This document shows, piece after piece, positions 19,581-60,323 of a DNA stretch of 64,000 nucleotides. Under the pieces are notes generated by a model that was not told the origin of the DNA, searched no databases, and worked only from the letters and a program-made list of their open reading frames with translations. Source of the DNA: Candidatus Magasanikiibacteriota bacterium (GTDB taxonomy: Bacteria > Patescibacteriota > Patescibacteriia > Magasanikbacterales > GWA2-37-8); NCBI GenBank assembly GCA_041666265.1, contig JBAYHH010000003.1:2020-66019 (forward strand), read 5' to 3'. Made by a program: the position numbers and the translations under genes. Positions within the stretch are counted from its first letter, which is position 1. Every line of letters starts with the position of its first letter.

Positions 19581-19584
19581 CACA

Positions 19585-19717: not shown

Positions 19718-19725
19718 TTTCGTAT

Positions 19726-20679: not shown

Positions 20680-22096
20680 TATGGACAAGATTCAGCTCAA
20701 AGAATATTTTAATAGATTGTCGCGGGTGCGACAGAAGCGGGGCGTCCGGAATCGGTATTACCACAACGATATCTATAAATTATTGAATTTTTTGATCCCC
20801 AAAGACGCATCAGTATTAGATGTGGGCTGCGGCGACGGTGAAATATTATCTCGTTTAGGTCGTCCAAAGAGTGTTGGTATCGATTTCAGTCCGGTTGTGA
20901 TAGCTTCGGCCGAACAACAGCATCCGGCAATTGAATTCTTAGAAATGGATGCTGAATATTTGTGTTTAAACAAAAAGTTTGATTATGTTGTAATATCTGA
21001 TACCATCGGTTTTCTAAGTGATATTCAGTCGGCGTTGTCTGGTTTGCATCGAATTTGTCATCCCAAGAGCAAGATCATCATTACTTATTATAATTATTTA
21101 TGGGAGCCTATATTAAAATTGGCGGAAAAACTACACCTTAAAACATCCGAACCGATACAGAATTGGGTTTCGTGTTCCGATGTTGATAATTTATTATATT
21201 TGGCAGGTTTTGAAATAGTAAAAAGAGGAGAGCGATTGCTTTTTCCCAAATATTTTCCGCTACTTTCATCTTTTCTGAATTTTTATTTGGCCAAAATGCC
21301 GCTCTTGCGCCATTTATGTTTAATTAATTATGTGGTAGCGCGCCCTCGTCCGGCCGGAAAAGTGTTGCCCGACCGTGATCCATCCGTCACAGTTTTGATT
21401 CCCGCACGCAATGAAAAGGGGAATATTGAAACCGCCGTGCAACGAGTTCCCAAACTCGGTTCGCATACCGAAATAATTTTTGTGGAAGGCAATTCCACTG
21501 ATAGCACTTGGGAAGAAATTGGTAGAGTCAAAGCAAAATATTCAAATTTGGATATAAAGATGATGAAGCAAGATGGTAGGGGCAAGGGTGACGCTGTGCG
21601 CAAAGGATTTGATGTCGCCAGTGGTGATATTTTAATGATTCTGGATGCAGATTTAACTGTGCGCCCCGAAGAATTACCTAAATTTTACCAGGCGATCGCA
21701 TCTGGGGCAGGGGAGTTTATCAATGGCTCGCGTTTAGTATATCAGCTCGAAGATCAATCAATGCGTTTGTTAAATATTTTTGGCAATAAGTTTTTTAGTC
21801 TAATGTTTAGCTGGTTATTAGATCAGAGATTAAAAGATACGCTTTGTGGCACCAAGGTTATTTGGAAAGATGATTATGAAAGAGTAAAATCTGGCAGATC
21901 TTTTTTTGGAGATTTTGATCCGTTCGGTGACTACGATCTTCTTTTTGGCGCAGCTAAGCTTAATTTGAAAATTGTCGATTTACCCATTCGCTATCAGGCC
22001 AGAACCTATGGCACTACCAATATTTCTCGTTTTCGTCACGGCTGGCTATTATTGCAAATGTGTTTTTTTGCCATGAAGAAAATCAAGTTTATATAA
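20669..22096 (+). CDS. bifunctional class I SAM-methyltransferase / family 2 glycosyltransferase
   Basis: N-terminal [12 protein letters not shown] methyltransferase motif I. C-terminal GT2 domain ([15 protein letters not shown]...[10 protein letters not shown]). An alternative ATG at 20681 avoids overlap with fcl. Confidence 0.7.
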
Positions 22097-22125
22097 CAAG
22101 GCTGTGGATAACTTTTTGACACCTT

Positions 22126-22154
22126 TTGACACCCAATGACACCAGGGGTATAAT
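22126..22154 (+). promoter_or_regulatory. consensus sigma70 promoter TTGACA-N17-TATAAT overlapped by three TGACACC direct repeats
   Basis: TTGACA at 22126-22131, an exact 17-nt spacer, and TATAAT at 22149-22154. TTGACACC, TTGACACC and TGACACC repeat at 22116, 22126 and 22135. The downstream HTH gene starts at 22184. Confidence 0.6.
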
Positions 22155-22183
22155 ACAGGATGTCATTATGATTTTGGCTAACT

Positions 22184-22432
22184 ATGGCAGAAATCAAGCC
22201 AAACGAGGTGTATACAACCCAAGAAGCACAAGAATTGCTTAAAATTAGCAATAGCACCATGAAACGCCTTATAAAGCGTGGTCTTATTCGTGCTAATAAA
22301 ATCGGCAAGCAATATCGCATTTTGGGGCATGATATTTTGAAAATGTTATCACCAGAAGTGGACAAGAAAGCCACTAATTTATACCAAAAGGTTAAAATGA
22401 AGACCATCGAAAAAACAAAAAATTGGGATTAA
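22184..22432 (+). CDS. small HTH DNA-binding protein (excisionase/HTH_17 family)
   Basis: 82 aa; YTTQEAQELLKISNSTMKRLIKRGLIRANKIGKQYRI is a typical excisionase-family HTH. Confidence 0.6.
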   Translation: MAEIKPNEVYTTQEAQELLKISNSTMKRLIKRGLIRANKIGKQYRILGHDILKMLSPEVDKKATNLYQKVKMKTIEKTKNWD

Positions 22433-22476
22433 TTATTTTGTCAATTATAATTTTAATACGACATTTTGTGGGTTAT

Positions 22477-24018
22477 ATGGCTAATTTAGGTCACCAAGTA
22501 ATTAAAAATTCAATTTATAGTTTTATTGGTTTTATCTGGCCTATTTTATTAGCATTTATTGCCACTCCTCTTCTAATCAGAGGGCTTGGTTCGGCTAAGT
22601 TCGGCTATTATATTCTACTTAACGCCAGCGTTGCTTTCTTTGCGTTGTTGGATTTTGGCTTAAGTTATACTTTCATTAAAAAATTATCAGAAGAACCAGA
22701 GAACGCCGGCAATGAATCGGTCAAAAAACTTTTTAGTTCCACTTTTTGGGCCTATTTGGTTATTGGTCTATTGGTATTTTTATTATTATGTTTTTTGCCC
22801 AACCTATTTAACTCATGGTTTAGAATTCCGGATGGTTATGCTTATTCCCATCAGTTAATATTCTTTTGTCTTGGCTTGACTTTTCTCTTCAAGATGTTGT
22901 CGGTTACAATTGGGCAAATTCCTTATGCATTGCAACGATCGGATATTACTACTAAAGTGGCTTTGCTCAATGTTACTTTGGTGCAAGTTGCCAGCGTCAT
23001 CCTGGTACTTACCGGGCACGGCATCGCCTCATTGGTGATTGTACAGTTATTTTCTTCCGTCATTGTTTTTTTGCTTTATTTTTTTATCAGTCGATCAATC
23101 CTGCCCAATCTCAAATTGGAGTTTTATTTTTCCCCTTATTTTTTTAAAGGAATAGCTAAAGATGGTTTTTGGAATTTTATTGCCAGCGGAGCCGGCAATT
23201 TATTAACACAATTAGATAAATTCGTAGTCGGTATATTTTGTGGTTCAACCGGAGTCACTTATTACACTTCGTCTCAGATGATTCCAGAGAAGATCCATTG
23301 TACGGCTTTCAGTTTGTCTATCTGTTTTTTTCCGGTGTTTTCTCGCGCCAGTATTAGCGGGCCAGACGACGGGGTAAGAAAAATATTCAGACGCGGTTTT
23401 AGTATGGTTGCTTTTGTTTCTGGCGGCCTATCTTTGGCTGTGCTTATATATAATTATCAGTTATTAAAATATTGGTTAGGTACGGAAATAGCTGACAACG
23501 CCTCGTTGGCTGTTATTTTTTTGGTTGGCACTTATTTTCTAACATCCTTGGGTAGTTTTGGTAGTTTTTTTGTCAGTGGTTGGAGAAAGCTCAAATTCTC
23601 CGCCTTTACCGCTGTATTGATGGCCGTATTAGATATAATTTTTATGTTTATTTTAATCCCCAGATTTCAGGTGGCCGGAGCAGCTGCCGCTTATCTGCTG
23701 AGTGTGTTGCCGATTCCATTCTTTATTTTATACATTGAAAAAAATTATTTAAAATCCGAAACTATTGGCGCGATTAAATTTTATTTGAAGCATATTTTAA
23801 AAATGGCTATAGTGATTATTCCGGTTTATCTATTTTCGGTGGCTTTCTTTATTCCAATAGCTTCCAGTTTGCTTTCCACGATCTTATTGGGCGGAATATC
23901 TTTTTTATTGTATGTCGGTATTTATTGGTTATTAGGATTTTTTAACCCGGATGATATTAGCTTGCTAAAGGAGTTTATGCAGAGATCTTTGTTAAAATTT
24001 AATTTGAAACATGAATAA
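22477..24018 (+). CDS. polysaccharide/O-antigen flippase (Wzx, MOP superfamily)
   Basis: About 12 TM helices; N-terminus MANLGHQVIKNSIYSFIGF resembles Wzx starts. The ORF-track start at 22423 is probably too far upstream. Confidence 0.65.
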   Translation: MANLGHQVIKNSIYSFIGFIWPILLAFIATPLLIRGLGSAKFGYYILLNASVAFFALLDFGLSYTFIKKLSEEPENAGNESVKKLFSSTFWAYLVIGLLVFLLLCFLPNLFNSWFRIPDGYAYSHQLIFFCLGLTFLFKMLSVTIGQIPYALQRSDITTKVALLNVTLVQVASVILVLTGHGIASLVIVQLFSSVIVFLLYFFISRSILPNLKLEFYFSPYFFKGIAKDGFWNFIASGAGNLLTQLDKFVVGIFCGSTGVTYYTSSQMIPEKIHCTAFSLSICFFPVFSRASISGPDDGVRKIFRRGFSMVAFVSGGLSLAVLIYNYQLLKYWLGTEIADNASLAVIFLVGTYFLTSLGSFGSFFVSGWRKLKFSAFTAVLMAVLDIIFMFILIPRFQVAGAAAAYLLSVLPIPFFILYIEKNYLKSETIGAIKFYLKHILKMAIVIIPVYLFSVAFFIPIASSLLSTILLGGISFLLYVGIYWLLGFFNPDDISLLKEFMQRSLLKFNLKHE

Positions 24019-24895
24019 TAACAAAAATAATTTAACTCCAGAATATTCTATCGGGGTAGTTACTTACATATCGAGATTCGAAGAGTTTTTTATACCTTTA
24101 ATCAAACAGTTGGTTAGTGTGTTTCCCGATAAAGAAATCATTTGTATTATCAACGGGCACCACGATACCTTTTTTCAAATTAATTATTTAAAGCGCGTAA
24201 CTGCTTTTTTAAGCCAGTATCCCAATGTGCGTTATATCACGCACGAAAAACATCAGCCACTCGCCAAATGTTTTAATTGGTTGTTACTCATGACATTCGC
24301 GCCGAGGATGTTGGTTTTAAACGATGATGTTAGTTTGAACTTATTGTTTCGTCAAGATTTTGAAAAACATCTCCAGGAGAACGATTTGTTTTTCGTGATC
24401 AATCGTAGTTGGTGCCATTTTTTGGTTTCAAAGAAATTGGTAAAAGAAATTGGTTGGTTTGACGAAAGATTACCAGGTACCGGCTATGAAGATGGTGATT
24501 ATCATATTCGTATGGTTGAAAAAGGTCAACCGGTTACCAGGGTGGAGTGCCGAGGTCTAATTAATTATGTTGCGCTACAAAACAACCCAGGATGGGCCAC
24601 CATTTCAAAAAAAGTAAGCACGGGACGCTCTGATAAATCTGCTGTCATAAATCGTGACTTTTTTTATTCAAAATATTCTACTGATGGTATATTAAAACCA
24701 GGCATGGAAACCCCTCTTTTTTATGATTATTCATGCTTAGATAATGAAGGCAATTTTGGGGTGTCAAAATTCATATACAAAGACGCCAAACCACCGCTCG
24801 GTCGGATTTTGATGCTACCGGTTTACGCAATTTATAGTTACACTCGTAAGATAGTTAGAATTATATATAGAAGCGTCAAAAAAATATTCAAATAA
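24011..24895 (+). CDS. hypothetical protein, possible GT-A fold glycosyltransferase
   Basis: IGVVTYISRFEEF N-terminus and GWFDERLPGTGYEDGDYHIRM resemble GT2-type motifs. Weak call. Confidence 0.4.
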   Translation: MNNNKNNLTPEYSIGVVTYISRFEEFFIPLIKQLVSVFPDKEIICIINGHHDTFFQINYLKRVTAFLSQYPNVRYITHEKHQPLAKCFNWLLLMTFAPRMLVLNDDVSLNLLFRQDFEKHLQENDLFFVINRSWCHFLVSKKLVKEIGWFDERLPGTGYEDGDYHIRMVEKGQPVTRVECRGLINYVALQNNPGWATISKKVSTGRSDKSAVINRDFFYSKYSTDGILKPGMETPLFYDYSCLDNEGNFGVSKFIYKDAKPPLGRILMLPVYAIYSYTRKIVRIIYRSVKKIFK

Positions 24896-24902
24896 TGTTA
24901 TT

Positions 24903-25535
24903 ATGAAAATTATTGAAGTTAAAAATTTGATTATTCCCGATGTTAAAGTGGTGCGTTTTGAAAGATTTGTTGATAGTCGGGGTTATTTTACCGAAATGTT
25001 TCATCGTCATGAAATCGACAGCGACACCCGGTTTGGTTTTTTAAAGAAATCAGATCTAATTCAAATAAATGAAAGTTTTGTTAAAGCAGGCGTGATTAAA
25101 GGTCTTCATTTTCAGTGGCAACCACCCTTGGGCAAATTACTCCGAGTTATTTCCGGACATATGATTGATATGGTTTTGGATATTCGTAAGGGCTCTCTCA
25201 CCGAAGGTAAAATTATTTTATATGACATGCCGGTTTCGCAATCAGATAATTATGGCGAATGGATTTGGTTGCCTCCCGGTATTGCTCACGGTAATATATT
25301 CTTGGAAGATAGTATTATAGAATATTTATTTACCGCCCCCTATAATAGCGCTGGCGAGAGTAGTATTTTTCCATTTTCAGAGGATATTGACTGGTCGTTG
25401 TGTGATCCAATTTTAAAGGATAAATTTAAAAAATTTGAATCCGGTAATTTTGTCATTAGCGATAAAGATAAAACAGGCCAATCATTTTTGGAGTGGAATC
25501 ACCACAATCAATCAAAAAATTTTATATATGTATAA
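24903..25535 (+). CDS. dTDP-4-dehydrorhamnose 3,5-epimerase-like cupin (RmlC family)
   Basis: FVDSRGYFTE, GLHFQ, KLLRVISGHMIDMVLDIRKGS, PPGIAHGNIFLED: the RmlC catalytic motif pattern. Confidence 0.75.
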   Translation: MKIIEVKNLIIPDVKVVRFERFVDSRGYFTEMFHRHEIDSDTRFGFLKKSDLIQINESFVKAGVIKGLHFQWQPPLGKLLRVISGHMIDMVLDIRKGSLTEGKIILYDMPVSQSDNYGEWIWLPPGIAHGNIFLEDSIIEYLFTAPYNSAGESSIFPFSEDIDWSLCDPILKDKFKKFESGNFVISDKDKTGQSFLEWNHHNQSKNFIYV

Positions 25536-26760
25536 ACATAGCACTCATTGTAGGATTTGTAATAGTGAAAATTTATCCAAATTTTTAGATTTTGGCAACC
25601 AACCTCTGGCTAATTCGTTTTTAAAAAATAAAGAAGAGTTTGTATCGGAAAAATTTTATCCTTTGGCTGTATATTTTTGCCATGACTGTAATTTAGCTCA
25701 ACTTTTAGATGTGGTAGACAAAGAAGAAATGTTTTCTCATTATATTTATTTTAGTTCGGGCATGCCCAAGCTTTCTAATCATTTTAAGGATTATGCCGAA
25801 GATGTTATCAAACGTTTTCTAGGTCCCGGCGAGCTTGTCGTTGAGATCGCCAGTAACGATGGGATATTATTAAAATTTTTTAAAGATTCGGGTTATAAAA
25901 TTTTAGGTATTGATCCAGCAGTAAATGTTGCCAAGGTTGCTCAGGATATGGGCGTTAACACAGTAGTTGATTTTTTCCGCGAGGATCTGAGCCTGGAGAT
26001 AGCGAAAAAGCATGGCACGGCCAAAGTGATTTTAGCCAATAATGTCGTGGCTCACATTGATGATCTCCATGATTTGGCCAAAGGTATTAATAATTTGCTT
26101 GCTGATGACGGGGTTTTTATTTTGGAAGCGCCCTATTTTGTGGATATGTTTGAAAATACCACTTATGATACAATTTACCACGAACACTTATCATATCTGG
26201 CAGTTCGGCCATTGCAAAAGTTTTTTGAATTGTTTGGGATGGAGATATTTGATGTAGAGATACACGAGGTACAGGGGAGGTCGTTACGGGTTTTCGTTGG
26301 TCGTAATGGCAAACATGACATCAGTGAGAGTGTTCAAAAATTTGTAAACAAAGAATTGGATTTAGGTTTGGATTCATGGTCGGTTTATACCGCGCTGGCA
26401 GAAAAAATTTCCCAGCAAAAACAAGATCTTACCAGGCTTTTGCAAGACCTAAAAAATTCCGACAAAAAAATTGCCGCGTATGGAGCGCCAGCCAAGGGCA
26501 ATACCATGTTAAATTATTGTGGTATTGGACCAGATGTTTTAGACTATGCTTTGGAAGATTTACCGGCCAAACAGGGTTTGTTGACTCCTGGAATGCATGT
26601 TCCAACTTTTGATAGCGCTTATGCGCACGCGCACTTACCCGATTATTTTTTAATGTTAGCCTGGAATTACCAGAAGCCGATTTTAGAAAAAGAGCAACAA
26701 TATATTAAAGACGGAGGTAAGTTTATCATCCCGGTAGAAGGAATAAAAATTGTTGGTTAA
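25528..26760 (+). CDS. SAM-dependent NDP-hexose C-methyltransferase (TylC3/NovU-like, with N-terminal Zn-ribbon)
   Basis: HCRICNSENLSKFLDFGNQPLANSF Zn-ribbon, ELVVEIASNDG methyltransferase motif, and a C-terminal C-methyltransferase-type domain. Confidence 0.7.
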   Translation: MYKHSTHCRICNSENLSKFLDFGNQPLANSFLKNKEEFVSEKFYPLAVYFCHDCNLAQLLDVVDKEEMFSHYIYFSSGMPKLSNHFKDYAEDVIKRFLGPGELVVEIASNDGILLKFFKDSGYKILGIDPAVNVAKVAQDMGVNTVVDFFREDLSLEIAKKHGTAKVILANNVVAHIDDLHDLAKGINNLLADDGVFILEAPYFVDMFENTTYDTIYHEHLSYLAVRPLQKFFELFGMEIFDVEIHEVQGRSLRVFVGRNGKHDISESVQKFVNKELDLGLDSWSVYTALAEKISQQKQDLTRLLQDLKNSDKKIAAYGAPAKGNTMLNYCGIGPDVLDYALEDLPAKQGLLTPGMHVPTFDSAYAHAHLPDYFLMLAWNYQKPILEKEQQYIKDGGKFIIPVEGIKIVG

Positions 26761-26763
26761 TTT

Positions 26764-27636
26764 ATGTCAAAAAGGAATATAAAAAAAATATTAATTTGCG
26801 GCAAAGGTCAGCTCGGTCAAGAGTTGTATAATTTTTTGCGATTAAAATATGATGTAGAAATTGTGGATCAGAGCAAATTGGATATCACCGATAAAGAAAA
26901 GGTTTCTAAGTTTATCAATAAAAGTTTGCCCCATTGCATCATAAACGCTGCTGCTTATACTCAAGTTGAGCGAGCGGAACAGGAGGTAGAAGAGGCTTTC
27001 CGAGTGAATGCTTACGGTCCTTATTATTTAGCCGTCGTCGCCAAAAATGTTGGCGCGATCCTTATTCATATTAGTTCAGATTATGTATTTGATGGAACTA
27101 AAAAGTTCTTTGTGGAAACAGATGCACCCAACCCCTTAAATATTTACGGAGCATCCAAGTTGCTTGGGGAAATATTGGTTCAGATTGCCTATCCTAATTA
27201 TTATATTTTTCGCACTAGCGCCATTTTTGGTCGGTATACCAGCCAAAGTCGGACTAATTTCGTCGATCGGATAATTGGTTTGGCCCGAGGTGGCAGGGCT
27301 ATCAAAGCTGTCACCGATCAATTTACATCACCAACCTATGCCACCGATTTGGCAGTTAAAATTTCAGAATTTATTAAAAAACAGCCCCCCAGTGGCATTT
27401 ATCATATTACCAATAGCGGATCTTGTTCGTGGTATGACTTCGCTGTTAAAATATTAAGTACCATGAATTTGACCACAAAAGTTAAACCAACAAAGACCGC
27501 AAAAGTTTTAGGTCCGATATCTCGTCCATGTTATAGTATTTTACATAGTCAGTTATTAAAAAACAGCGGATTTGATACCTTGCCTTCTTGGCAAAATGCT
27601 CTCAAAAGATATTGCCGGGAAAAATATAATATTTAA
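26764..27636 (+). CDS. rmlD: dTDP-4-dehydrorhamnose reductase (RmlD family)
   Basis: ILICGKGQLGQEL, ...CIINAAAYTQVERAEQE...AFRVNAYGP...ILIHISSDYVFDG: RmlD signature. Confidence 0.8.
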   Translation: MSKRNIKKILICGKGQLGQELYNFLRLKYDVEIVDQSKLDITDKEKVSKFINKSLPHCIINAAAYTQVERAEQEVEEAFRVNAYGPYYLAVVAKNVGAILIHISSDYVFDGTKKFFVETDAPNPLNIYGASKLLGEILVQIAYPNYYIFRTSAIFGRYTSQSRTNFVDRIIGLARGGRAIKAVTDQFTSPTYATDLAVKISEFIKKQPPSGIYHITNSGSCSWYDFAVKILSTMNLTTKVKPTKTAKVLGPISRPCYSILHSQLLKNSGFDTLPSWQNALKRYCREKYNI

Positions 27637-27663
27637 CATTATTTTAAGTATAACTATCAATCT

Positions 27664-28452
27664 ATGAAGACTATTATTCTGTGTGGGGGAACAGGCACTC
27701 GCATGAAAGAGGAGACAGAATTCAAACCTAAACCACTTGTTGAAGTTGGGGGCAAGCCAATTCTTTGGCATATCATGAAGATATATGCTCACTATGGTTT
27801 TAATGATTTTATTCTAGCTCTTGGATACAAGAGCAATATGATCAAAGATTACTTTCTTAACTGGCGTGCTTTTGTAAATGATTTTTCCTTAAATACCAAG
27901 ACCGGCGAAATGATTTTTCACAATAATGATTGTGATGATTTTAAGATTACTTTCGCGGAAACCGGTCTTACTAGTCTTACCGGCGAGCGGGTGCGTCGAT
28001 TGAAAAATTATATTACCGACGATCATTTTATGGTAACTTATGGTGACGGTGTAAGCGATATAGACATTTCTGAATTAATAAATTTTCATAAAAATCAAAA
28101 GACATTGGCCACTATCACTGGTGTGCGTCCCGGCAATCGTTTTGGTTTTTTGAATATTGATCACGAAGCCAAAAAAGCAGTTGATTTTTTTCAGCACAAA
28201 GTGACCAATACCGGCAAAGAAGAATCTTCCAAAGATTATATTAATGGTGGTTTCATGGTATTTGACAAAGAGGTGTTAGATATGATTGCAGAGGACAGCA
28301 TGATCGAATCAGTTTTTCCTGTTTTGGCGGAGCAAGGGCAACTCTCGGTTTATTTGCATTCGGGAAAATGGAAGTGCATGGATACTCATAAAGAAGTGGA
28401 AGAGATGAATGAGCATTGGACCAAAGATCCTTTTTGGAAAATTTGGAAATAA
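27664..28452 (+). CDS. ddhA: glucose-1-phosphate cytidylyltransferase
   Basis: MKTIILCGGTGTRMKEETEFKPKPLVEVGGKPILWHIMKIYAHYGFNDFILALGYK: near-identical to the RfbF/DdhA consensus. Confidence 0.9.
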   Translation: MKTIILCGGTGTRMKEETEFKPKPLVEVGGKPILWHIMKIYAHYGFNDFILALGYKSNMIKDYFLNWRAFVNDFSLNTKTGEMIFHNNDCDDFKITFAETGLTSLTGERVRRLKNYITDDHFMVTYGDGVSDIDISELINFHKNQKTLATITGVRPGNRFGFLNIDHEAKKAVDFFQHKVTNTGKEESSKDYINGGFMVFDKEVLDMIAEDSMIESVFPVLAEQGQLSVYLHSGKWKCMDTHKEVEEMNEHWTKDPFWKIWK

Positions 28453-28456
28453 TTTT

Positions 28457-29530: not shown

Positions 29531-29559
29531 AATTATAGAGCGATAGACTTTTGATGTGT

Positions 29560-30423: not shown

Positions 30424-30425
30424 TT

Positions 30426-31469: not shown

Positions 31470-31482
31470 CCTTGTAAATAAT

Positions 31483-37052: not shown

Positions 37053-37057
37053 CTAAT

Positions 37058-39245: not shown

Positions 39246-39260
39246 TATGAAATATTTAAT

Positions 39261-40984: not shown

Positions 40985-41000
40985 TTTTTGTGTTAAAAAT

Positions 41001-42257: not shown

Positions 42258-42273
42258 AGTTAAATGATCTGGT

Positions 42274-44241: not shown

Positions 44242-44252
44242 TATCTAATCTC

Positions 44253-45197: not shown

Positions 45198-45206
45198 AGA
45201 TAATGT

Positions 45207-48865: not shown

Positions 48866-48877
48866 TCCGATTTAATT

Positions 48878-49711: not shown

Positions 49712-49716
49712 TTTTT

Positions 49717-50508: not shown

Positions 50509-50532
50509 TTTGATATTAGTATTACATGATAT

Positions 50533-51465: not shown

Positions 51466-52184
51466 TTTATATTATGTTGTCAGAATACTTTTTACGCGTC
51501 AAATTACAGTTTAGAAAGCCAATAAACTATATTTATAGTTTTAGCTTTTTCAAACAATTTATTGGTCCAAACAAATTATTTTTTGATATTGGTGCTAATG
51601 TAGGCAACCGTACTAGAGTTTTTAATCGGTTGGGCGTAAAGGTGGTCGCTTTAGAGCCTCAGTCAAATTGCGCCGATAAACTCGCAAAAGAGTTTGTTAA
51701 TAAGAATGTGGTAATAGTACGCAAAGGCGTTGGAAGAGGGATGGGGGAGATGAGAATGAGTGTTTGTACAAATGTGAGCAGCATTTCTACTTTTTCCGAA
51801 GATTGGAAAACCGGACGATTCAAAAATTTTAAGTTTGATAAGGAGATTGTGGTTCCTATGACCACACTGGATAAATTAATAGCAGAATACGGTAGTCCAG
51901 ATTTTTGCAAAATAGATGTAGAAGGCTATGAGTTTGAAGTTTTTGCTGGCTTAACTAAAAAAATAGATTGCTTGAATTTTGAGTTCACCAGTGAATTTTT
52001 TAAAAATACAATTAAATGTCTCGAAAGATTGATAGTGATTGGTTTTAAAGAATTTAATTTTACTTTAGGTGAGGAGCCATTTTTTATTTTGCAGTCATGG
52101 GTTAACAAAGACATGTTACATGCTATTATTGAAGAAAAAATTAAAAATAATACTGATTTGTGGGGGGATATTTATGCTAGATAA
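51459..52184 (+). CDS. FkbM-family SAM-dependent methyltransferase
   Basis: FFDIGANVGNRTRVF...VVALEPQ, a signature of the FkbM family. Confidence 0.75.
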   Translation: MLIYIMLSEYFLRVKLQFRKPINYIYSFSFFKQFIGPNKLFFDIGANVGNRTRVFNRLGVKVVALEPQSNCADKLAKEFVNKNVVIVRKGVGRGMGEMRMSVCTNVSSISTFSEDWKTGRFKNFKFDKEIVVPMTTLDKLIAEYGSPDFCKIDVEGYEFEVFAGLTKKIDCLNFEFTSEFFKNTIKCLERLIVIGFKEFNFTLGEEPFFILQSWVNKDMLHAIIEEKIKNNTDLWGDIYAR

Positions 52185-52193
52185 TTAAAATTT

Positions 52194-54128
52194 ATGTTTA
52201 TGCAATTTTTGGTAGCGTTTTTTTGGGGGATTGTAGTACTGCTGGCTTTTATTGGCTATGGCAGACTTCTTAATTTAATTTTATCTCCCGGAAAAAAATT
52301 TGATCTGGGCATGCAGGCGGCCTTTGGTTTAATCTTGAGTATAACGATCGGAGGTTTTTTGAATTTTATCGCCGTTATTTCGGTATTATCAATAAAAATT
52401 TTTATTACTTTTGGTTTTTTATCGTTTTTATTTTTTTGGCTTAAAAATTTTCGAACATGGCCAATACTAATACATCAAGTATTTTCATTTGTCAAAGAAA
52501 ATATAATTTTTGCCGTGGCCGTGACTGTGATTTTCGTGATTATTTTAGGTCGTTATAGTGTTGCGGTTTCCTTTTTCGGTTTTAATGGCACCGATGATCA
52601 TTATAGTTATATGGCTTTTCCGGCACAGATGTTACAGATCGGCTCGCTTAGTAACGATCCCTTTAACGAGCGCCGTCTGGAGTCGTCTCTTGGCGGTCAG
52701 TATTTTTTGCACGCCATCATTCTTTCCGTCACCTCTTTTAAGAACTTACATCTCACAGACAATGGATTGGGTTATTTAATTTTAGTGCTTTTATTGGTTG
52801 GTTTTCTTAGAGAAAAGAAAATCGGGAAGTTTCTTGGCATCAGTGTTGTTTTTTTAATGACGGTTGTTGTCTCTCCCGTGCTTAATATTACCGCCAGCTA
52901 CACCGCCGCTGTTGTATTTTTTCTTTTTTTTAGATTGTCCTATCCGATTTTAGGATTCAAAAATCATTCCAATCTGTTTAGTGCGCTAATGATTGCTTTG
53001 CCATTATCGGCAATTTGCGCTCTAAAATCCACCTACATTGTTGTCGCGGCAATGTTGTTTATTGGGCATTATTTTGTGTATTTTCGTCGTATTGGCAATT
53101 ATCGGCCGGTAATCAAGGAGCTGGTTGTGACGGTGTCAGCAATTTTTATTTTCCTTCTGCCATGGATGTTATCAATGTTGTCATCTTCGGGGACAATGCT
53201 TTGTCCAATTTTTGGTCGCGGTTATCAAGGAACCGCTTATGGGGCTTTTGAGCATGTTGTTCAATTTGATTTGTACAGCTTATTGCGCTTGCTTTTTGAA
53301 AGTTTTAGTAGTTTTACCACACTACTACCGTTTGCTGTAATCGGTATTATGGCCTATGGTTTAGTTGGCGGTGAAGAAAAGCATTTTTTCTGGGTCATAT
53401 TTTTAAGCTCATTATCCGGTTTGTTGGCATTGATTTTGCTCATGGGCGGATATAGTTTGTATTATTATAGTTTTGCATTTCTTTTTTCAAGCATTTTATT
53501 TGTTGCTTGTTTATTGTTCGCCGGGGATTTGCGTTTTCGTATTTTTCCTATTTTTAATGATCGCCTGGTTGGATTAGCTTTGGTAACTTTTTTATTTGGT
53601 GCATTTTTACAGAGAGATTTGGCAGTGGTGGACAATATAAAATATAGCCTAAACATCGATGGTGGCCGACCGAAGATCGGGCTTATCAATTCTGATTTAG
53701 TAAGTGAGAAAGAGCTTAAACAATATTCGGATTTGCAAAAATCAGTCCCGGCTGGAGAAATAATTATTGCCCGACTCGACAAGAATTTTTTGTTTGATTT
53801 TAAAAGAAACAGGATTTATATAAATGATTCGCCGGGTGGATCCAGTTTGCCTCCCGGAATTCCATTAAAAAGCGGTAGCGAATCTATGGCTAACTATTTT
53901 TTATCCCACAATATTAAATATATCACATATTCTTACGGAAATGAGGCAAATTTTTCTTTTGCGTCCGTATCTGGGATGCTGAAACCGCATGTAAATCGGT
54001 TATTGCGCTCCATTACCGAAAATAGTTTAGCTTTTCAGGATTACACCATGGAATTAAGCAAAACAAGAAAAATAATTTATGATGACGGAAAAAATTTTGT
54101 AATCGATTTATCAATTATAACTAAATAA
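52194..54128 (+). CDS. polytopic membrane protein (Wzy-like polymerase candidate) with a C-terminal soluble domain
   Basis: About 14 hydrophobic segments in the first 480 aa, then a hydrophilic C-terminal domain. Confidence 0.45.
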   Translation: MFMQFLVAFFWGIVVLLAFIGYGRLLNLILSPGKKFDLGMQAAFGLILSITIGGFLNFIAVISVLSIKIFITFGFLSFLFFWLKNFRTWPILIHQVFSFVKENIIFAVAVTVIFVIILGRYSVAVSFFGFNGTDDHYSYMAFPAQMLQIGSLSNDPFNERRLESSLGGQYFLHAIILSVTSFKNLHLTDNGLGYLILVLLLVGFLREKKIGKFLGISVVFLMTVVVSPVLNITASYTAAVVFFLFFRLSYPILGFKNHSNLFSALMIALPLSAICALKSTYIVVAAMLFIGHYFVYFRRIGNYRPVIKELVVTVSAIFIFLLPWMLSMLSSSGTMLCPIFGRGYQGTAYGAFEHVVQFDLYSLLRLLFESFSSFTTLLPFAVIGIMAYGLVGGEEKHFFWVIFLSSLSGLLALILLMGGYSLYYYSFAFLFSSILFVACLLFAGDLRFRIFPIFNDRLVGLALVTFLFGAFLQRDLAVVDNIKYSLNIDGGRPKIGLINSDLVSEKELKQYSDLQKSVPAGEIIIARLDKNFLFDFKRNRIYINDSPGGSSLPPGIPLKSGSESMANYFLSHNIKYITYSYGNEANFSFASVSGMLKPHVNRLLRSITENSLAFQDYTMELSKTRKIIYDDGKNFVIDLSIITK

Positions 54129-54151
54129 AATTTAATTTTTAATAATGATCT

Positions 54152-55861
54152 ATGAAAATACTTGGTTTAAGCAGTTATTCCCATGAGGCCAGCGCCGCTC
54201 TTATTGTTGATGGTCAGTTAGTCTCATTTGTCGAAGAAGAGCGCATTAATCGTGAGAAACATACATGGAAATTTCCAAAAAATGCAATTACCGCCTGTTT
54301 AAAAGAGGCCAAGTTATCTATTAGGGATATTGACCATTTTACTTTTTTCTGGGTGCCATCCAAGGAATTAACCGGTAATTTATTACATTTTGCAAAGTTT
54401 TTTCCAGAGAGTATAAATCTATTTAAAGCCTCGTCCGGTTCTGATGATTTAACTTTTTTAACAAGATTAAATTTGATGCGAAACATCGGGCGTACTTTAA
54501 AAAATGAGTTTGGTTTATCGCAGATACCGCATGTTCATTATATCGAACATCATTTATCTCATGCGGCCAGTGCTTTTTTTGTTTCTCCTTATCAGGATGC
54601 TGCTATTTTAACAATGGACGGTCGCGGTGAATCAACGTCAACATTCTTGGCGGTCGGACATCAGAATAAAATTGAGAGGATAAAAGAAATTAAAGTTCCG
54701 CATTCTTTGGGACATTTATACGCAGCCGTTACCGATCATTTAGGATTCAAACCTTTTTTTGATGAGTGGAAGGTTATGGGAATGTCCGCATATGGAAAAA
54801 ATACTTATGTTAAAGATTTTCAAGATGTGGTTTCTTTGCTCAGCGACGGAACATATCGGCTTAATTTGGAATATTTTAAATTTCATACCCATGGCCAATC
54901 TCAATGGGTGAGTGATTTGTTCATAAAAAAATTTGGTCCTAAGAGAAAATATCAGGATCCATACGAACCACGACATTATGATATTGCTTATGGATTACAA
55001 AAAATTGTAGAAAATGCCGGAGTAAATTTAGCCAAACATCTATACGAAATAACGCAACTTCCCAACCTTTGTATGACCGGCGGAGTTGTTTTGAATTGTC
55101 TAATGAACAAAAGAATAGTCGAGGAGACGCAGTTTAAGGAATTCTTTTTTCAGCCAATTGCCAATGACGCAGGAACATCTTTGGGCAGTGCTTTGTATTT
55201 TCATCATCAAATTCTTAATCAGCCCCGTAAATTCATTTTTGATTCGGTTTATTGGGGGCCACAGTATAGTCCGGCGGAGATAGAAGATGTGCTAATCAAA
55301 ATGAGGGTTAAATATAAACGCTGTGATAATATTGCACGAGAAACAGCCCCACATATCGCCCAAGGTAAAATTGTTGGCTGGTTTCAAGGGAGAATGGAGG
55401 CAGGTCCTCGAGCTTTGGGTAATCGCAGTATCGTCGTCACTCCCGTTAACTCAGCAATGAAGGACAAGCTTAATGAACGCGTTAAAAAACGCGAGCATTT
55501 TCGTCCGTTCGCGCCATCAGTATTAGAAGAAAAAGCATCGGAGTATTTTAATATGCCCAAGGGGCAGTTATCGCCTTACATGATTCTTGTTGCCGATGTA
55601 AAGGAATATAAAAAGAATGTTATTCCAGCGGTTACGCATGCTGATGGGACATCGCGGGTTCACACGGTAAACCGAAATACTAATCCCCGATATTGGGAAC
55701 TAATTTCCGAGTTCGAAAAAATTACCGGTGTCGCGGTTATTATCAATACTTCTTTTAATGAGAATGAGCCAATCGTCTGTACACCACAGGATGCAGTTAG
55801 TTGTTTCTTGAGAACGGAGTTTGATGTGTTGGCTATCGGAGATTTCTTGGTTGAAAAATAA
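54152..55861 (+). CDS. carbamoyltransferase (NodU/CmcH/TobZ family)
   Basis: MKILGLSSYSHEASAALIVDGQLVSFVEEERINREKH N-terminus and C-terminal carbamoyltransferase-domain motifs; 569 aa. Confidence 0.85.
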   Translation: MKILGLSSYSHEASAALIVDGQLVSFVEEERINREKHTWKFPKNAITACLKEAKLSIRDIDHFTFFWVPSKELTGNLLHFAKFFPESINLFKASSGSDDLTFLTRLNLMRNIGRTLKNEFGLSQIPHVHYIEHHLSHAASAFFVSPYQDAAILTMDGRGESTSTFLAVGHQNKIERIKEIKVPHSLGHLYAAVTDHLGFKPFFDEWKVMGMSAYGKNTYVKDFQDVVSLLSDGTYRLNLEYFKFHTHGQSQWVSDLFIKKFGPKRKYQDPYEPRHYDIAYGLQKIVENAGVNLAKHLYEITQLPNLCMTGGVVLNCLMNKRIVEETQFKEFFFQPIANDAGTSLGSALYFHHQILNQPRKFIFDSVYWGPQYSPAEIEDVLIKMRVKYKRCDNIARETAPHIAQGKIVGWFQGRMEAGPRALGNRSIVVTPVNSAMKDKLNERVKKREHFRPFAPSVLEEKASEYFNMPKGQLSPYMILVADVKEYKKNVIPAVTHADGTSRVHTVNRNTNPRYWELISEFEKITGVAVIINTSFNENEPIVCTPQDAVSCFLRTEFDVLAIGDFLVEK

Positions 55862-55920
55862 ACAAGAATAAAGATTACCATTCATTACACAAATTTTTTA
55901 GTCAATAATTTATTCTATAT

Positions 55921-56663
55921 ATGAGTGAAGTATTTAGACCAATTTCAAATACACCGCCGGACACAGTGATAAATACAATTAAATTTTATGGCAGAATGAT
56001 TATAGATTTGCAAATATTTACCATTTTTAAAGATCTGAAAAAAACCGTAGTATCTTTTGAAGGAAATATATTAGACATTGGGTGTGGACTATCTCCATAT
56101 AAGTTTTTGTTGAAAACTGGGGGGGGACACGATATTTCGGCATTGATATTGTGGATGCAGATAAATTTGATTATAAAAATTCAAGCATCACACCTTTTGA
56201 TGGCGAAGAAATTCCCTTCGAGAATGACAAGTTTGATGGGTTAATGTGTACGGAAGTGCTTGAGCATGTTTATCACTACCAAAAATTAATAGATGAAATG
56301 TATCGTGTTATGAAAAAGGGAGGAATGGGTATTTTAACAGTTCCGTGGGGCGGTAGATACCATTACATACCTTTTGATTATTTCCGTTATACGCCCAGCA
56401 GTTATAAAATTATGTTTGACAAATTTAGCAAAGTGGAAATTTCGCCCAGGGGAACAGATATTGCAAATATTGCTAATAAGTTAATTGTGATCTGGGCAAG
56501 AGGGATTGTGCCATTTAAAATTTTTAAATTAATTTTTTTACCAGTTTGGATAATCTCATTATTATTTTTGGGTATAGTTGTGGTTCTGGCTCACTTATCA
56601 TTGAGTTATAATATTGGGAGCCAAGATGATCCTCTCGGATATACAATTAGAATAGTAAAATAA
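55921..56663 (+). pseudogene. class I SAM-methyltransferase (Methyltransf_11-like) interrupted by a frameshift at a G8 tract
   Basis: ORF 55921..56244 carries motif I (ILDIGCGLSPYKFLL). ORF 56151..56663 in the +2 frame carries motifs II/III (FDGLMCTEVLEHV...MKKGGMGILTV). They are joined only if the G-run at 56119-56126 is G9 or G6. Confidence 0.65.
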
Positions 56664-56699
56664 TCAAATTGTTGGTTTAAAAAACAAGAAGTATAAAAT

Positions 56700-57551
56700 A
56701 TGATTATAACGAAAATTAAGTGCGGGCTCGGCAATCAGATGTTTCAGTATGCGTTGGGTAGGCGTCTGGCGCTGGACTGGAAAGACGAACTAAAGGTTGA
56801 TTTATCTTGGTTCGATAATATTCAAGTTGGCGACATACCCAGGGAGTTGGAGATCGACGATTTTAATATTGTTTTAAAAGAAGCTACTGAGTCGGAGATT
56901 GCCAAATCATCGCCGTATTTTTTTTCGAGGACAGTCGATAAAATCCGCGGATGTATAAACAGAAATCATTTTTATCATTTCTATCCACAGATTTTAAAAA
57001 AGAAAAAGAACATCTATTTAGATGGCTATTTTCAAAGTTATAAATATTTTGAATCAATCAGGCATGTATTATTAGCGGAATTTATTTTAAAAAGTGGTTA
57101 TCACCAAAAAGTTGATGAAATAAAAGTGGCAATTGAGAGTGTTGATCAATCTGTGGCCATGCATATTCGTCGCGGTGATTACGCTACTATACGAAAAGGA
57201 TATCACGGGTTGTGTGATTTGTCTTATTATCAAAAAGCCTTGGCGATGATAAAAAGTCATTACCCGAATATTACATTATTTATTTTTTCGGATGATATTG
57301 AGTGGGCAAAAAGTAATTTAAAATACGACAGTCCAATGGTGTTTGTCTCACAACCAGAATTATGTCCCGCAGAAGAAATGTGGTTGATGAGTCTGTGTAA
57401 ACACCACATTATTGCTAACAGCACATATAGTTGGTGGTCGGCGTGGCTCAATCAAAATCCAGAAAAGATTGTCATTGCTCCCAAGCGCTGGATACGGGCA
57501 GCTGACATCAACACCGAAGATTTAATTCCGAGTAATTGGCTGCAAATATAA
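56700..57551 (+). CDS. alpha-1,2-fucosyltransferase (GT11 family)
   Basis: CGLGNQMFQYALGRRLA, the GT11 hallmark; 283 aa. Confidence 0.8.
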   Translation: MIITKIKCGLGNQMFQYALGRRLALDWKDELKVDLSWFDNIQVGDIPRELEIDDFNIVLKEATESEIAKSSPYFFSRTVDKIRGCINRNHFYHFYPQILKKKKNIYLDGYFQSYKYFESIRHVLLAEFILKSGYHQKVDEIKVAIESVDQSVAMHIRRGDYATIRKGYHGLCDLSYYQKALAMIKSHYPNITLFIFSDDIEWAKSNLKYDSPMVFVSQPELCPAEEMWLMSLCKHHIIANSTYSWWSAWLNQNPEKIVIAPKRWIRAADINTEDLIPSNWLQI

Positions 57552-57554
57552 ACT

Positions 57555-58301
57555 ATGTCGCAGGTGAGTGTTATAATGGTTTCTCATAATCGCGATAATT
57601 TTATCGGGCTTGCGATTGATAGTGTTTTGTCGCAATCATTTTTTGATTGGGAGATGATTATTATTGACGACTGTTCGACAGATAATACCGGTGCACTCGT
57701 TGGCAAGTATGGCGACCCTCGAATTAAATATTTTAAAAATGAAAGCCGAATGGGTATTGTGCAATCGCGCAACAAGGCTCTATCGATCGCGCGTGGTGAA
57801 TATGTGGCAATATTAGATAGCGATGATATTTGGCAGGATAAAGATAAGCTTAAAAAGCAGGTTGAGTTTCTCCAAAATAATCATGATTATGTTTTGTGTG
57901 GAGGAATGGCTGAGATTATTGATGGGAGCGGTAAAAAAGTTGGAGAAATAAATTTTAAGGAAAAAGATGATGAAATAAGAAAAATAATGCTATTAAGCAA
58001 TCAGCTTGTTCATTCTTCGGTGCTGTACAGAAAAGATCCGGCGGTCGCGGTCGGTGGATATGGTAATTATGAAGTGGGGGAGGACTATGATTTGTTTTTA
58101 AAATTGGGTTTGGTTGGCAAGTTTAAAAATTTGTCTGACCATTTAGTGTTTTACCGTCGTCATACTGGTGGGGTGACATGGCACGATCGACGAAAATCCG
58201 CGTTGTGCCATTTAAAAATTATAATTCAATATCGTAACAGATATCCTAATTATCTTTTTGCCGTACTCAAAGCCTATGTACGAGTAATAATATCATGGTA
58301 G
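57555..58301 (+). CDS. family 2 glycosyltransferase
   Basis: VSVIMVSHNRDNFIGLAIDSVLSQ...IIIDDCSTDNT. Confidence 0.75.
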   Translation: MSQVSVIMVSHNRDNFIGLAIDSVLSQSFFDWEMIIIDDCSTDNTGALVGKYGDPRIKYFKNESRMGIVQSRNKALSIARGEYVAILDSDDIWQDKDKLKKQVEFLQNNHDYVLCGGMAEIIDGSGKKVGEINFKEKDDEIRKIMLLSNQLVHSSVLYRKDPAVAVGGYGNYEVGEDYDLFLKLGLVGKFKNLSDHLVFYRRHTGGVTWHDRRKSALCHLKIIIQYRNRYPNYLFAVLKAYVRVIISW

Positions 58302-58302
58302 T

Positions 58303-59415
58303 ATGAAAATCCTCCACCTCATCACCAAATCCGAACTGGGCGGGGCGCAGACGCATGTAGCTCAACTTTGCAATTATTTTAAAATGAACGGAGTCGATGT
58401 AGTGGTTATGAGCTATCCGGGTGGGTGGCTGGAAGATGAGGTTAATAAAATAGGAGTTAAGTTTTTTCCAAATAAATATTTTTCCAATAGTCCCAATCCC
58501 ATTAAAATTTGGTTGGCGGCCAAGGAGATAAACAAAGTTTTGCTGAGCTTTGCTCCTGACATCGTTCATTGTCACGGCTCCGCTGCGGGCGTGCTAGGGC
58601 GATTGGTGGTTCGTGGTAAAATAAAAACAATTTTTACCGCTCACGGATGGAGTTTTAACAAGGGGGTGCCATTGTGGTTGAAGGTGTTTGGCGTCATCAG
58701 TGAAAAAATTTGTGGATTTTATACATCAAAAATTATCGCGGTATGTAATTTCGTGAAAGAGTACGGGATAAAATATCGGGTAGCCGAATCGGATAAATTT
58801 ACAGTTATTTATAATGGTATCGAAGTCGTTGATGGTAGATCCGTTGCTCCGCTCAGGGTAGCAGACAATCGTGGTAAGCAGAAGATAAAAATGGTGTTTG
58901 TCGGTCGTCTGGCAGCTCCCAAAGACCCGTTTATATTGATGGAAGCCCTTGCTAAAAGTGCAATTAAAGATGATGTTGAATTAAGTATCATTGGATCGGG
59001 TCCACAAGACAGCCGGGTAGCGAAACAAATGAATTCATTAGGATTAACCCAAGTAAAGCTTCTCGGATCCTTGCCCCGCCATCAAGTATTTGATATATTA
59101 AAGCAGTCTGATGTATTTGTATTAACCACCAATTGGGAGGGTTTTCCGTACGCAGTGCTCGAAGCAATGAGTTGTGGTCTGCCGGTGATCGCATCTGATG
59201 TGGGCGGTATTAAAGAAATGATAACACCCGATACGGGAATTTTGGTAAAAAAAGGTGACGCCAATCAATTAAAAATGGCCTTAGAAAAGTTAGTATTAGA
59301 TTCTGAAATGAGGCGACGAATGGGTGATGCCGCTCGAGAAAAGGTAATAAATAGTTTTTCATTGGATAAAATGTTTCAAGAAACTGCCAAAGTTTACGAA
59401 GAAGTATCACGATAG
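58303..59415 (+). CDS. family 4 (GT-B) glycosyltransferase
   Basis: MKILHLITKSELGGAQTHV...; C-terminal E-x7-E region (EGFPYAVLEAMSCGLPVIAS). Confidence 0.8.
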   Translation: MKILHLITKSELGGAQTHVAQLCNYFKMNGVDVVVMSYPGGWLEDEVNKIGVKFFPNKYFSNSPNPIKIWLAAKEINKVLLSFAPDIVHCHGSAAGVLGRLVVRGKIKTIFTAHGWSFNKGVPLWLKVFGVISEKICGFYTSKIIAVCNFVKEYGIKYRVAESDKFTVIYNGIEVVDGRSVAPLRVADNRGKQKIKMVFVGRLAAPKDPFILMEALAKSAIKDDVELSIIGSGPQDSRVAKQMNSLGLTQVKLLGSLPRHQVFDILKQSDVFVLTTNWEGFPYAVLEAMSCGLPVIASDVGGIKEMITPDTGILVKKGDANQLKMALEKLVLDSEMRRRMGDAAREKVINSFSLDKMFQETAKVYEEVSR

Positions 59416-59503
59416 ATTCCCATTCGGCTGTCGCTCAGGGCAGGCTTTCGATTCGCGGAGTTTACCCTGAGCAGAGCCGAATGGGCTTCGCTCAAAATGA
59501 CAA
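59413..59503 (-). repeat. family A repeat (reverse orientation, long palindromic insert)
   Basis: Reverse complement reads ttgtcattttgagcgaagcccattcggctctgctcaggg...ccctgagcgacagccgaatgggaatct. Confidence 0.75.
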
Positions 59504-59514
59504 ATAAATGATTT

Positions 59515-60299: not shown

Positions 60300-60323
60300 T
60301 TTCTATTTTACTAAACTAAAATT

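Follow-up and report, generated by a model that had tools for sequence, protein, structure and literature searches.

Gene content of the locus

We analyzed a stretch of 64,000 nucleotides (the window, whose first letter is position 1) of contig JBAYHH010000003.1 in assembly GCA_041666265.1, from a member of Candidatus Magasanikbacteria (Candidate Phyla Radiation, CPR/Patescibacteria). Between gmd and fcl on one side and rpmA and rmlB on the other, the window carries an island of about 35 genes with low GC content, which is probably the variable cassette of a surface-glycan locus, of the kind called a replacement flexible genomic island. CPR genomes have a size of about 1 Mb, and CPR bacteria presumably have an attached lifestyle on other cells; no lipopolysaccharide (LPS) is known from them. 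The contig belongs to a short-read metagenome assembly, and the window was extended to 76 kb with sequence of the ENA metagenome contig ERZ27249449 k141_102428 (117 kb), which contains the window and encodes its gmd protein. Loci of relatives are designated by L-numbers (L005, L023, and so on), and the genomes compared were species-level representatives.

Pfam scans were done on the 48 open reading frames (ORFs) of the window with at least 120 amino acids (aa), which cover all island genes and both flanks. Further annotation was obtained from NCBIfam with the cutoff of each model, and membrane segments were assigned with a transmembrane (TM) heuristic. All the island genes are on the plus strand and are separated by 59 bp at most, and a single transcription unit probably comprises most of the array. 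The Pfam and NCBIfam annotation revealed a Wzx flippase, more than 10 glycosyltransferases, and nucleotide-sugar pathways, in support of an earlier note on this DNA that had described the region as a surface-glycan cassette. A search of the whole window against Rfam at gathering thresholds gave no match.

The gene that we used as an anchor (16279–18396, plus strand) codes for a 705-aa protein with 12 TM segments, a Wzy_C domain (O-antigen ligase/polymerase-like; Pfam 3e-21), and a C-terminal TPR region. Full-length homologues with 42–75% identity were present in 80 CPR loci, almost all of them from metagenome-assembled genomes of Magasanikbacteria/Patescibacteria. The anchor gene is followed by gmd and fcl (18525–20679, plus strand; Pfam GDP_Man_Dehyd, 1e-153, and Epimerase), which are predicted to synthesize GDP-L-fucose and form a semi-conserved head of the locus; in about 25 relatives this pair comes directly after the anchor gene. 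The next gene (20669–22096, plus strand) encodes a fused S-adenosylmethionine (SAM) methyltransferase and family 2 glycosyltransferase (MT/GT2), similar to AglJ and polyprenyl-phosphate hexose transferases (Pfam, NCBIfam). It is the first gene with less than 40% GC, and its homologues in L015, L024, and L033 are 66–69% identical and occupy the same position.

Past a small gene for a candidate regulator, described below, the array continues with the Wzx-type flippase (22468–24018; 13 TM segments; Pfam Polysacc_synt and Polysacc_synt_3). A module for a C-methylated 6-deoxyhexose follows (24011–27636), composed of a glycosyltransferase-like protein, an RmlC-like epimerase, a sugar C-methyltransferase, and an RmlD reductase (Pfam dTDP_sugar_isom, Methyltransf_13/14, and RmlD_sub_bind; NCBIfam rmlD, 285 bits with a cutoff of 224).

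The largest module (27664–38368) resembles the pathways for branched 3,6-dideoxyhexoses of the erwiniose type. Its components include a Glc-1-P cytidylyltransferase, a CDP-Glc 4,6-dehydratase, an RfbH (E1) 3-dehydrase, an acetylating acetaldehyde dehydrogenase, a 4-hydroxy-2-oxovalerate aldolase, a YerE/ErwE-like (acetolactate-synthase-like) thiamine diphosphate (ThDP) enzyme, and a short-chain dehydrogenase/reductase (SDR). Interspersed among these genes are those of a class I/II aminotransferase and a split transketolase. Four enzymes scored above their NCBIfam cutoffs, namely the CDP-Glc dehydratase DdhB (469 bits, cutoff 278), RfbH (698 bits, cutoff 423), the acetaldehyde dehydrogenase (396 bits, cutoff 282), and the aldolase (389 bits, cutoff 286); DdhA, with 279 bits, was just under its cutoff of 300. 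The aldolase and acetaldehyde dehydrogenase pair, which corresponds to ErwI/ErwJ, adjoins the ThDP enzyme (31483–33261), which is similar to acetohydroxyacid synthases, and the SDR. In the erwiniose pathway of Pectobacterium atrosepticum, 4-hydroxy-2-oxopentanoate is the product of the aldolase and is coupled to CDP-4-keto-3,6-dideoxyglucose by the ThDP enzyme (PMC9306805). The families and the gene set suggest that the CDP-sugar module of the island may make an acyl-branched sugar of the erwiniose type.

Downstream of it (38361–44241) are two SDR epimerases/dehydratases, a GT2, a protein with eight TM segments, and a cobalamin radical-SAM C-methyltransferase of the KedN5 family (Pfam, NCBIfam, TM heuristic). 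The 8-TM protein (41001–42257) matched no family in Pfam or NCBIfam and is a candidate Wzy polymerase.

The two genes at 44253–47957 are a candidate pair for side-branch glycosylation. The first (44253–45197) encodes a GtrB/CsbB-like GT2 with two C-terminal TM helices (Pfam GT2, TM heuristic), and the second (45207–47957) a 916-aa protein with 15 TM segments that resembles glycosyltransferases of the GT-C fold. A search of 5.8 billion proteins found only 13 members of the family of the 916-aa protein; the best match was 62% identical, and a homologue (P0004) was fused to a GtrA-like domain. Its AlphaFold model had a pLDDT of 67 and a pTM of 0.69, and the top ten PDB matches found with Foldseek were all GT-C enzymes (STT3, AftA, DPY19, PglB), although weak (E 2e-3 to 8e-2, TM-score 0.26–0.43). 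Homologues of the pair adjoin an erwiniose-like module in the metagenome contigs L085–L087. The predicted fold and the gene arrangement suggest that the pair may be a side-branch glycosylation system like Gtr/CsbB-YfhO.

Three GT2 genes, a 310-aa protein, an FkbM methyltransferase, a 644-aa protein with 13 TM segments, and a NodU-like O-carbamoyltransferase come next (47954–55861; Pfam, NCBIfam, TM heuristic), and the tight array ends with a GT11 alpha-1,2-fucosyltransferase-like gene, a GT2, and a GT4 (56700–59415; Pfam). After the MT/GT2 fusion, the island encodes seven further GT2 enzymes and one GT4. Three polytopic membrane proteins (with 8, 15, and 13 TM segments) had no family matches, and the comparison of the anchor protein and two large membrane proteins with PDB sequences gave no matches.

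A SAM methyltransferase gene (55921–56663, plus strand) is out of frame because of a G8 tract (56119–56126), and one added G restores an ORF of 247 aa. For a run as long as this, the expected number in the island is about 0.13. A Logan assembly, which was the only other assembly found and was identical, has G8 as well. The gene and its frame-setting tract are a candidate for a phase-variable switch or a pseudogene. A G7 tract (49021–49027) is in frame within the GT2 gene at 48878–49711.

By composition, the last gene of the island is an ORF of 245 aa with 37% GC (59515–60252, plus strand), located between two copies of a repeat. It matched only the middle of nucleotide-sugar dehydrogenases (NCBIfam, a partial match of 31 bits with a cutoff of 190) and probably represents what is left of a truncated gene at the edge of the island. 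The right flank (60324–63210) is at host GC and consists of a GalE-like epimerase, rpmA (minus strand), a small ORF, and an RmlB-like dehydratase; gpsA, PBP2, and a Mur ligase lie beyond it on the contig.

On the left side of the window, two genes (3425–7102 and 12172–16062) encode very large proteins of 1225 and 1296 aa, each with a single N-terminal TM/signal segment, and one of the two has lamin-tail and beta-helix domains. The two genes adjoin a sigma/DUF5667 pair and the glycan locus, and their products may be surface proteins or glycan acceptors.

Predicted promoter, operator, and regulator at the head of the array

A promoter/operator region (22103–22154, plus strand) lies upstream of the candidate regulatory gene. 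It is formed by a TGTGGATAA box and, after it, three direct TGACACC boxes with a spacing of 10 bp. These boxes overlap a perfect TTGACA-17-TATAAT promoter (22126–22154), which matches the consensus at 12 of 12 positions. The motif occurs once in the window. The TGACACC boxes and the −10 element are kept upstream of the same gene in at least 11 of 15 relatives, with homologous sites in L005, L006, L015, L023, L024, L033, L036, L043, L045, L053, and L058.

The gene (22184–22432) encodes an 82-aa DNA-binding protein with a helix-turn-helix (HTH), of the HTH_17/excisionase family (NCBIfam, 38.7 bits with a cutoff of 28.8), and it is the first gene of the variable operon. The protein is 68–96% identical across 15 relatives, and in 15 genomes the gene and its operator head different glycan cassettes. 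At the DNA level it was 85% identical to the gene of L023, compared with 70–77% for the flanking genes. This fits a candidate locus-specific regulator that is placed at the start of a long transcription unit and would bind the operator.

The DnaA-box consensus TTATCCACA was found six times in the window (0.7 expected), always in intergenic DNA, at positions 300, 712 (minus strand), 7205, 9754, 11427, and 22103 (minus strand). A copy just upstream of the glycan promoter is kept in several relatives. At 744–1132, between a divergent HTH_17 gene (350–709, minus strand) and the gene of an extracytoplasmic function (ECF) sigma factor, a 37-nt direct repeat (TTTGTATACACTAATCTACACAAACG core) is present three times, and the same interval contains an imperfect inverted repeat of 56 nt with AAAT/CAAAT-rich units.

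Composition and boundaries of the low-GC tract

The composition was analyzed in 1-kb GC bins, by a two-boundary maximum-likelihood segmentation of the 76 kb, and by the GC content at third codon positions (GC3) of each gene. The bins of the flanks had 38–53% GC and those from 22 to 58 kb had 32–42%. The best low-GC segment was 19874–60324, with a log-likelihood gain of 444, and the GC content was 36.5% inside it and 47.1% outside (46.9% on the left and 47.8% on the right). GC3 was 0.28–0.40 in 35 island genes and 0.41–0.64 in 25 genes outside, with no overlap between the two groups (Mann–Whitney p = 6e-11). Our results showed that the region deviates from the host genome toward lower GC, as replacement flexible genomic islands do.

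A windowed calculation of the kind that the earlier note had proposed as a check gave a nonuniform composition, and the drop in GC that it described is real. However, the contrast is about 10 points, and the values given there (25–33% in the island and 50% in the flanks, about 20 points) were overstated. The edges, which had been placed between fcl and the MT/GT2 gene and at 59.4 kb, also have to be corrected. The left edge is a gradient through gmd (42.7% GC), fcl (41.5%), MT/GT2 (39.3%), and wzx (35.6%). The right edge is at about 60.3 kb, past the 245-aa ORF, and the repeat at 59.4–59.5 kb that had been taken to lie outside the island sits within the low-GC tract.

A hairpin repeat family around the island

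The repeat unit has the structure GTCATYCTGAGC, a variable hairpin of 0–60 nt, and GAAGRATCT, and 18 copies were found in the 76 kb (0.03 expected for the 18-mer). The copies have lengths of 26–90 nt, differ among themselves, and are located in intergenic gaps; those on the left side of the island are in plus orientation and those on its right side in minus orientation. Three tandem copies between gmd and fcl (19581–19725, plus strand) are the last repeat site before the island. A long hairpin variant (59416–59514, minus strand; fold −43 kcal/mol, z = −5.2) is within the low-GC tract, and a further copy (60253–60323, minus strand), the inverted mutual best match of the copy at 19671, is at the right compositional boundary.

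No copy was found from 20.7 to 59.4 kb, as had been noticed before, and a relaxed two-box search of this interval gave one weak match, fewer than the 2.7 expected by chance. The earlier note attributed this absence to an island not yet colonised by the repeats of the genome. We found that the attribution is not supported, because the repeats occupy intergenic gaps and the operon has almost none: the intergenic DNA of the island amounts to 270 bp in gaps of at least 30 bp (496 bp in total), compared with 4.8 kb in the rest of the sequence, where 16 copies were counted. This density predicts 0.9–1.6 copies in the island, and the probability of finding none is about 0.2–0.4; we therefore rejected the absence as evidence of recency. 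The repeats are also missing from the outer flanks, from −6.5 to 3.1 kb (9.7 kb on the left) and from 61.3 to 69.6 kb (8.3 kb on the right). The absence of the repeats is real yet uninformative on the age of the island, and in general the absence of an intergenic repeat says nothing on the age of a region unless it is normalized by the intergenic space available.

The copies at 19671–19717 (plus strand) and 60256–60296 (minus strand) bracket the maximum-likelihood low-GC segment; they are inverted and are mutual best matches among 16 copies. The a priori chance of this is roughly 0.1, and the hint that the pair had a role in recombination is only suggestive. Inverted copies of the same repeat subvariant around the low-GC tract, together with a gene of the excisionase family at its left end, could also suggest a self-mobile integrative element, that is, an integrative island or a prophage remnant in which the HTH_17 protein would act as Xis. 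The Pfam scans of the 48 ORFs, however, gave no match to an integrase, a recombinase, a transposase, or conjugation or phage proteins; a scan for tRNA genes in the window was negative, and direct att-like repeats were absent. The conservation of the HTH_17 gene and its operator in front of different cassettes in 15 genomes fits a locus regulator. Given the lack of an integrase, a tRNA, and att repeats in the window, we rejected an integrative element and consider it very improbable.

Some repeat units are translated. Within the anchor ORF, at 17560–17700, three units are in frame and form a linker of the Wzy_C-TPR protein, with the peptides PVILSAAKDL / HCHPE..RSEGS / VIPAKAGIH. The anchor homologues of L023, L005, and L006 have repeat-derived peptides (CHPERSEGS, ILAKAGIQ) in the same variable loop.

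Probable exchange of cassettes and modules among relatives

The closest relative available, L023, has an anchor gene with 75% identity and is collinear with the window from the gene at 3425–7102 through the anchor, gmd, fcl, and the HTH_17 gene (96% aa identity). Directly past the HTH_17 gene, L023 has an unrelated Wzx, followed by radical-SAM/SPASM genes and a methyltransferase. In L037, the gene order is Mur ligase, anchor, gmd, rpmA (minus strand), a small ORF, rodA, and rmlB. The left and right flanks of the window are adjacent there, and the gap between gmd and rpmA is 12 bp. The comparison of synteny between gmd-fcl and rmlB, another of the checks proposed in the earlier note, thus revealed other genes in L023 and adjoining flanks in L037, and it supports the claim of an exchangeable slot. 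The conserved flanks of the slot are the anchor gene with gmd-fcl on the left and rpmA, rmlB, gpsA, PBP2, and the Mur ligase on the right.

The modules of the island recur in other orders and combinations in L006, L014–L016, L020, L021, L024, L033, L062, and L085–L087. The erwiniose-like module was present in L006, L016, L020, L021, L062, L085, and L086, and the C-methyl module is common to the window and L024, with 59–72% identity. The Wzx of the island is 79% identical to that of L033, a distant genome with 36% GC whose anchor is only 54% identical. For three island genes, identity to the relatives did not track the identity of the anchor (rho 0.46, −0.31, and −0.9), and for the upstream sigma factor (rho 0.85) and the HTH_17 gene (rho 0.72) it did; all these correlations are based on small samples.

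Two further differences were seen outside the island. The block of gpsA, PBP2, and the Mur ligase is upstream of the anchor gene in eight relatives (L008, L022, L026, L033, L037, L038, L049, and L058; only PBP2 and the Mur ligase in L026 and L033, and only the Mur ligase in L049), which shows that the neighbourhood has been rearranged around the glycan locus. The window also has a small low-GC islet at 7103–9959 (an AAA_14 ATPase, two nucleotidyltransferase genes, and a HepT toxin) that is absent from L023. It is split by three direct repeats of 80–100 bp (at 7123, 8925, and 9705) with a terminator-like hairpin and a TTATCCACA box, and it looks like a cassette insertion at a repeated site.

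A change of genes and composition at the same place could also result from a chimeric assembly, in which a low-GC Magasanikbacteria cassette of a co-occurring population was joined to flanks of 47% GC through repeats or conserved genes. The short-read metagenome origin of the contig and the repeats at both edges would allow this, as would the independent Logan contig, which is identical within the island and ends inside the hairpin repeat at 59.4 kb. However, repeats of 26–90 nt that diverge from each other are too short to bridge a graph with k = 141, and the left transition is graded within contiguous genes that overlap (gmd, fcl, MT/GT2), the GC content falling at a point that carries no repeat. 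In a chimera, both junctions would have to lead back to flanks with the same GC (46.9% and 47.8%), which are neighbours in L037, and the order gmd, fcl, MT/GT2, and HTH_17 gene is also found in L015 and L024. We consider a chimera improbable, and the replacement of one cassette by another in a fixed slot remains our preferred explanation.

Possible causes of the low GC: transfer and intrinsic AT-richness

GC3 values of the homologues of six island genes were regressed on GC3 of the anchor gene of the same genome, with 4–13 genomes for each gene. In the relatives, the two values were equal (slopes 0.5–1.0, r at least 0.9, mean difference about 0). The copies of the window were 0.10–0.15 below the prediction, which corresponds to 3–9 residual standard deviations (SD), and gmd and fcl were within −0.7 to −1.4 SD of the expectation. 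In three hosts with a comparably GC-rich anchor (L062, L014, and L039; anchor GC3 0.44–0.49), the same genes had GC3 values of 0.39–0.50, compared with 0.28–0.37 in the window. These data support a cassette whose composition has not reached equilibrium with that of the host genome.

The alternative is a cassette that has long been resident and vertically inherited, and that is intrinsically AT-rich because its codons are under weak selection, its expression is low, or the long operon undergoes strand-specific mutation. Downstream of the anchor gene, 10 kb were lower in GC than the 10 kb upstream in 43 of 48 relatives (mean −4.0 points, extreme −9.4, p = 1e-9), so that part of the AT-richness is probably generic to this type of locus. 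O-chain clusters are in general lower in GC, with 23.8% in those of Pelagibacterales and 29.4% in the genome (PMC11898729). The tetranucleotide signature of the island fits the host lineage, and no close donor was found. However, the dip in the window is −10 points, larger than in any of the 48 relatives. The GC3 values of the same genes in L062, L014, and L039 speak against a purely intrinsic cause, as does a Wzx that is wholly unlike that of the closest relative and yet 79% identical to that of a distant genome with 36% GC. Long residence is in our opinion unlikely, and replacement by transfer is the better explanation.

The correlation of tetranucleotide z-scores, which are normalized for composition, was 0.61–0.69 between the island and the left flank, 0.67–0.75 between the island and L023, and 0.06–0.23 between the island and an unrelated contig; the two flanks correlated with 0.66. 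The tetranucleotide analysis, which the earlier note had also suggested, assigned the island to the signature of the lineage. Island proteins had 46–81% identity to CPR homologues. The description of the island as recent or foreign has to be qualified in view of the lack of a close donor, the lineage-like signature, and the generic dip in GC. The evidence supports a cassette that would have been acquired from a lower-GC member of the same lineage and has not fully ameliorated.

Several results weigh against replacement by a transferred cassette. The generic dip after the anchor gene and the few genomes in each GC3 regression have been mentioned. ORF sharing among 46 loci was equally poor upstream and downstream of the anchor gene (0.086 in the 10 kb before it and 0.074 in the 10 kb after it), so that L023 and L037 are the main evidence for a replacement slot, and only these two show it to be more variable than its surroundings. 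A search of 80 genome loci, 7 metagenome loci, and 5.8 billion proteins found no near-identical donor or sister cassette, and the DNA identity of the island to relatives (64–75%) is equal to that of the flanks; "recent" is thus meant in a relative sense, on the basis of composition. We found no second assembly that crosses either junction, the Logan contig being wholly inside the island. On the side of gene function, the 48 ORFs contained no Bac_transf or Glycos_transf_4 domain of an initiating phosphoglycosyltransferase (WbaP or WecA type), which may lie elsewhere in the genome, and the window had neither an E3-type reductase (DdhD) nor a separate GtrA. The Wzy and GT-C assignments are weak, and the one protein with a Wzy_C domain, encoded by the anchor gene, lies outside the cassette.

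Proposed function and significance

Judging from the families and gene sets, the enzymes encoded in the locus would make GDP-fucose, a C-methylated 6-deoxyhexose, and a branched 3,6-dideoxyhexose of the erwiniose type. The GT2, GT4, and GT11 transferases would assemble these sugars on a lipid carrier, with the addition of methyl and carbamoyl groups, and Wzx would flip the unit across the membrane. Outside the membrane, a side-branch sugar could be added by the polyprenyl-phosphate GT2 and the GT-C-like membrane protein, and the anchor Wzy_C-TPR protein or the 8-TM protein might polymerize or attach the glycan. The cassette would be built of modules that circulate among Magasanikbacteria. It presumably replaced an earlier one by recombination from a lower-GC relative, with a left breakpoint at or just past the HTH_17 head, and the copy in this 47%-GC genome matches in codon composition a host with about 36% GC.

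A broader and speculative possibility, which we put forward with little confidence, is that Magasanikbacteria, and perhaps CPR bacteria widely, keep a dedicated site for the exchange of surface glycans. A highly conserved head, composed of the DnaA-box-like site, the triple TGACACC operator over the consensus promoter, and the HTH_17 gene, would act there both as regulator and as homology anchor for swapping cassettes of 10–40 kb between species, the inverted hairpin repeats would mark the other edge, and poly-G tracts would switch modifications on and off. If this were true, the cells would have a rapidly changing coat of branched sugars that could govern the recognition of these episymbionts by phages and host cells.

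Low-GC, exchangeable glycan cassettes in fixed slots are well known in proteobacteria, streamlined marine bacteria, and archaea. Our literature searches on CPR glycan islands did not reveal any report of loci of this kind from CPR bacteria. An operon of 40 kb with pathways for rare branched sugars would be a large investment in the surface for a genome of about 1 Mb. The locus is a defined place to seek strain-level surface diversity in groundwater CPR populations, and the conserved pair of regulator and operator is directly testable.

Comparison with known systems

The hairpin repeats are like repetitive extragenic palindromic (REP) and miniature inverted-repeat transposable element (MITE)-like repeats in that short hairpin units are scattered over the gaps between genes, at the gene ends, and like the Rickettsia palindromic elements in that some copies are translated in frame, here in the variable loop of a conserved protein. 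They differ from both in their consensus, and no Rfam match was obtained.

The candidate side-branch pair shares with the Gtr and CsbB-YfhO systems a GT2 with C-terminal TM helices that adjoins a large polytopic protein resembling GT-C enzymes. Unlike these systems, it has no separate GtrA in the window and no Pfam match to the YfhO or GtrC families, and the fold match is weak.

The CDP-sugar module has the same gene set as the erwiniose cluster (ErwE/F/I/J plus ddh genes; PMC9306805). With the erwiniose and yersiniose (YerE/YerF) pathways it shares the CDP-glucose route and an aldolase/dehydrogenase pair located beside a ThDP enzyme and an SDR. The differences are the E3 enzyme (DdhD), for which the window had no gene, and the interleaved aminotransferase and split transketolase.

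As a whole, the locus is similar to the O-chain biosynthesis clusters (OBC) of Pelagibacterales, to the corresponding "glycotype" islands of Alteromonas, and to the O/K loci of Enterobacterales, where an island occupies a fixed slot, relatives have other gene sets, and the GC content is lower. Like the O-chain replacement islands, it combines nucleotide-sugar pathways, glycosyltransferases, and Wzx, and exchange at its conserved edges would take place by homologous recombination; as in the O-chain islands of streamlined genomes, the locus is large relative to the genome. Unlike them, it belongs to a CPR host, it was compared here at the species level, and a conserved HTH_17 gene, with an operator of three boxes, stands at the head of its cassette. 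This kind of island is already known in many bacteria and the main finding is in that sense ordinary; the regulator at its head and the erwiniose-type pathway are of more interest.

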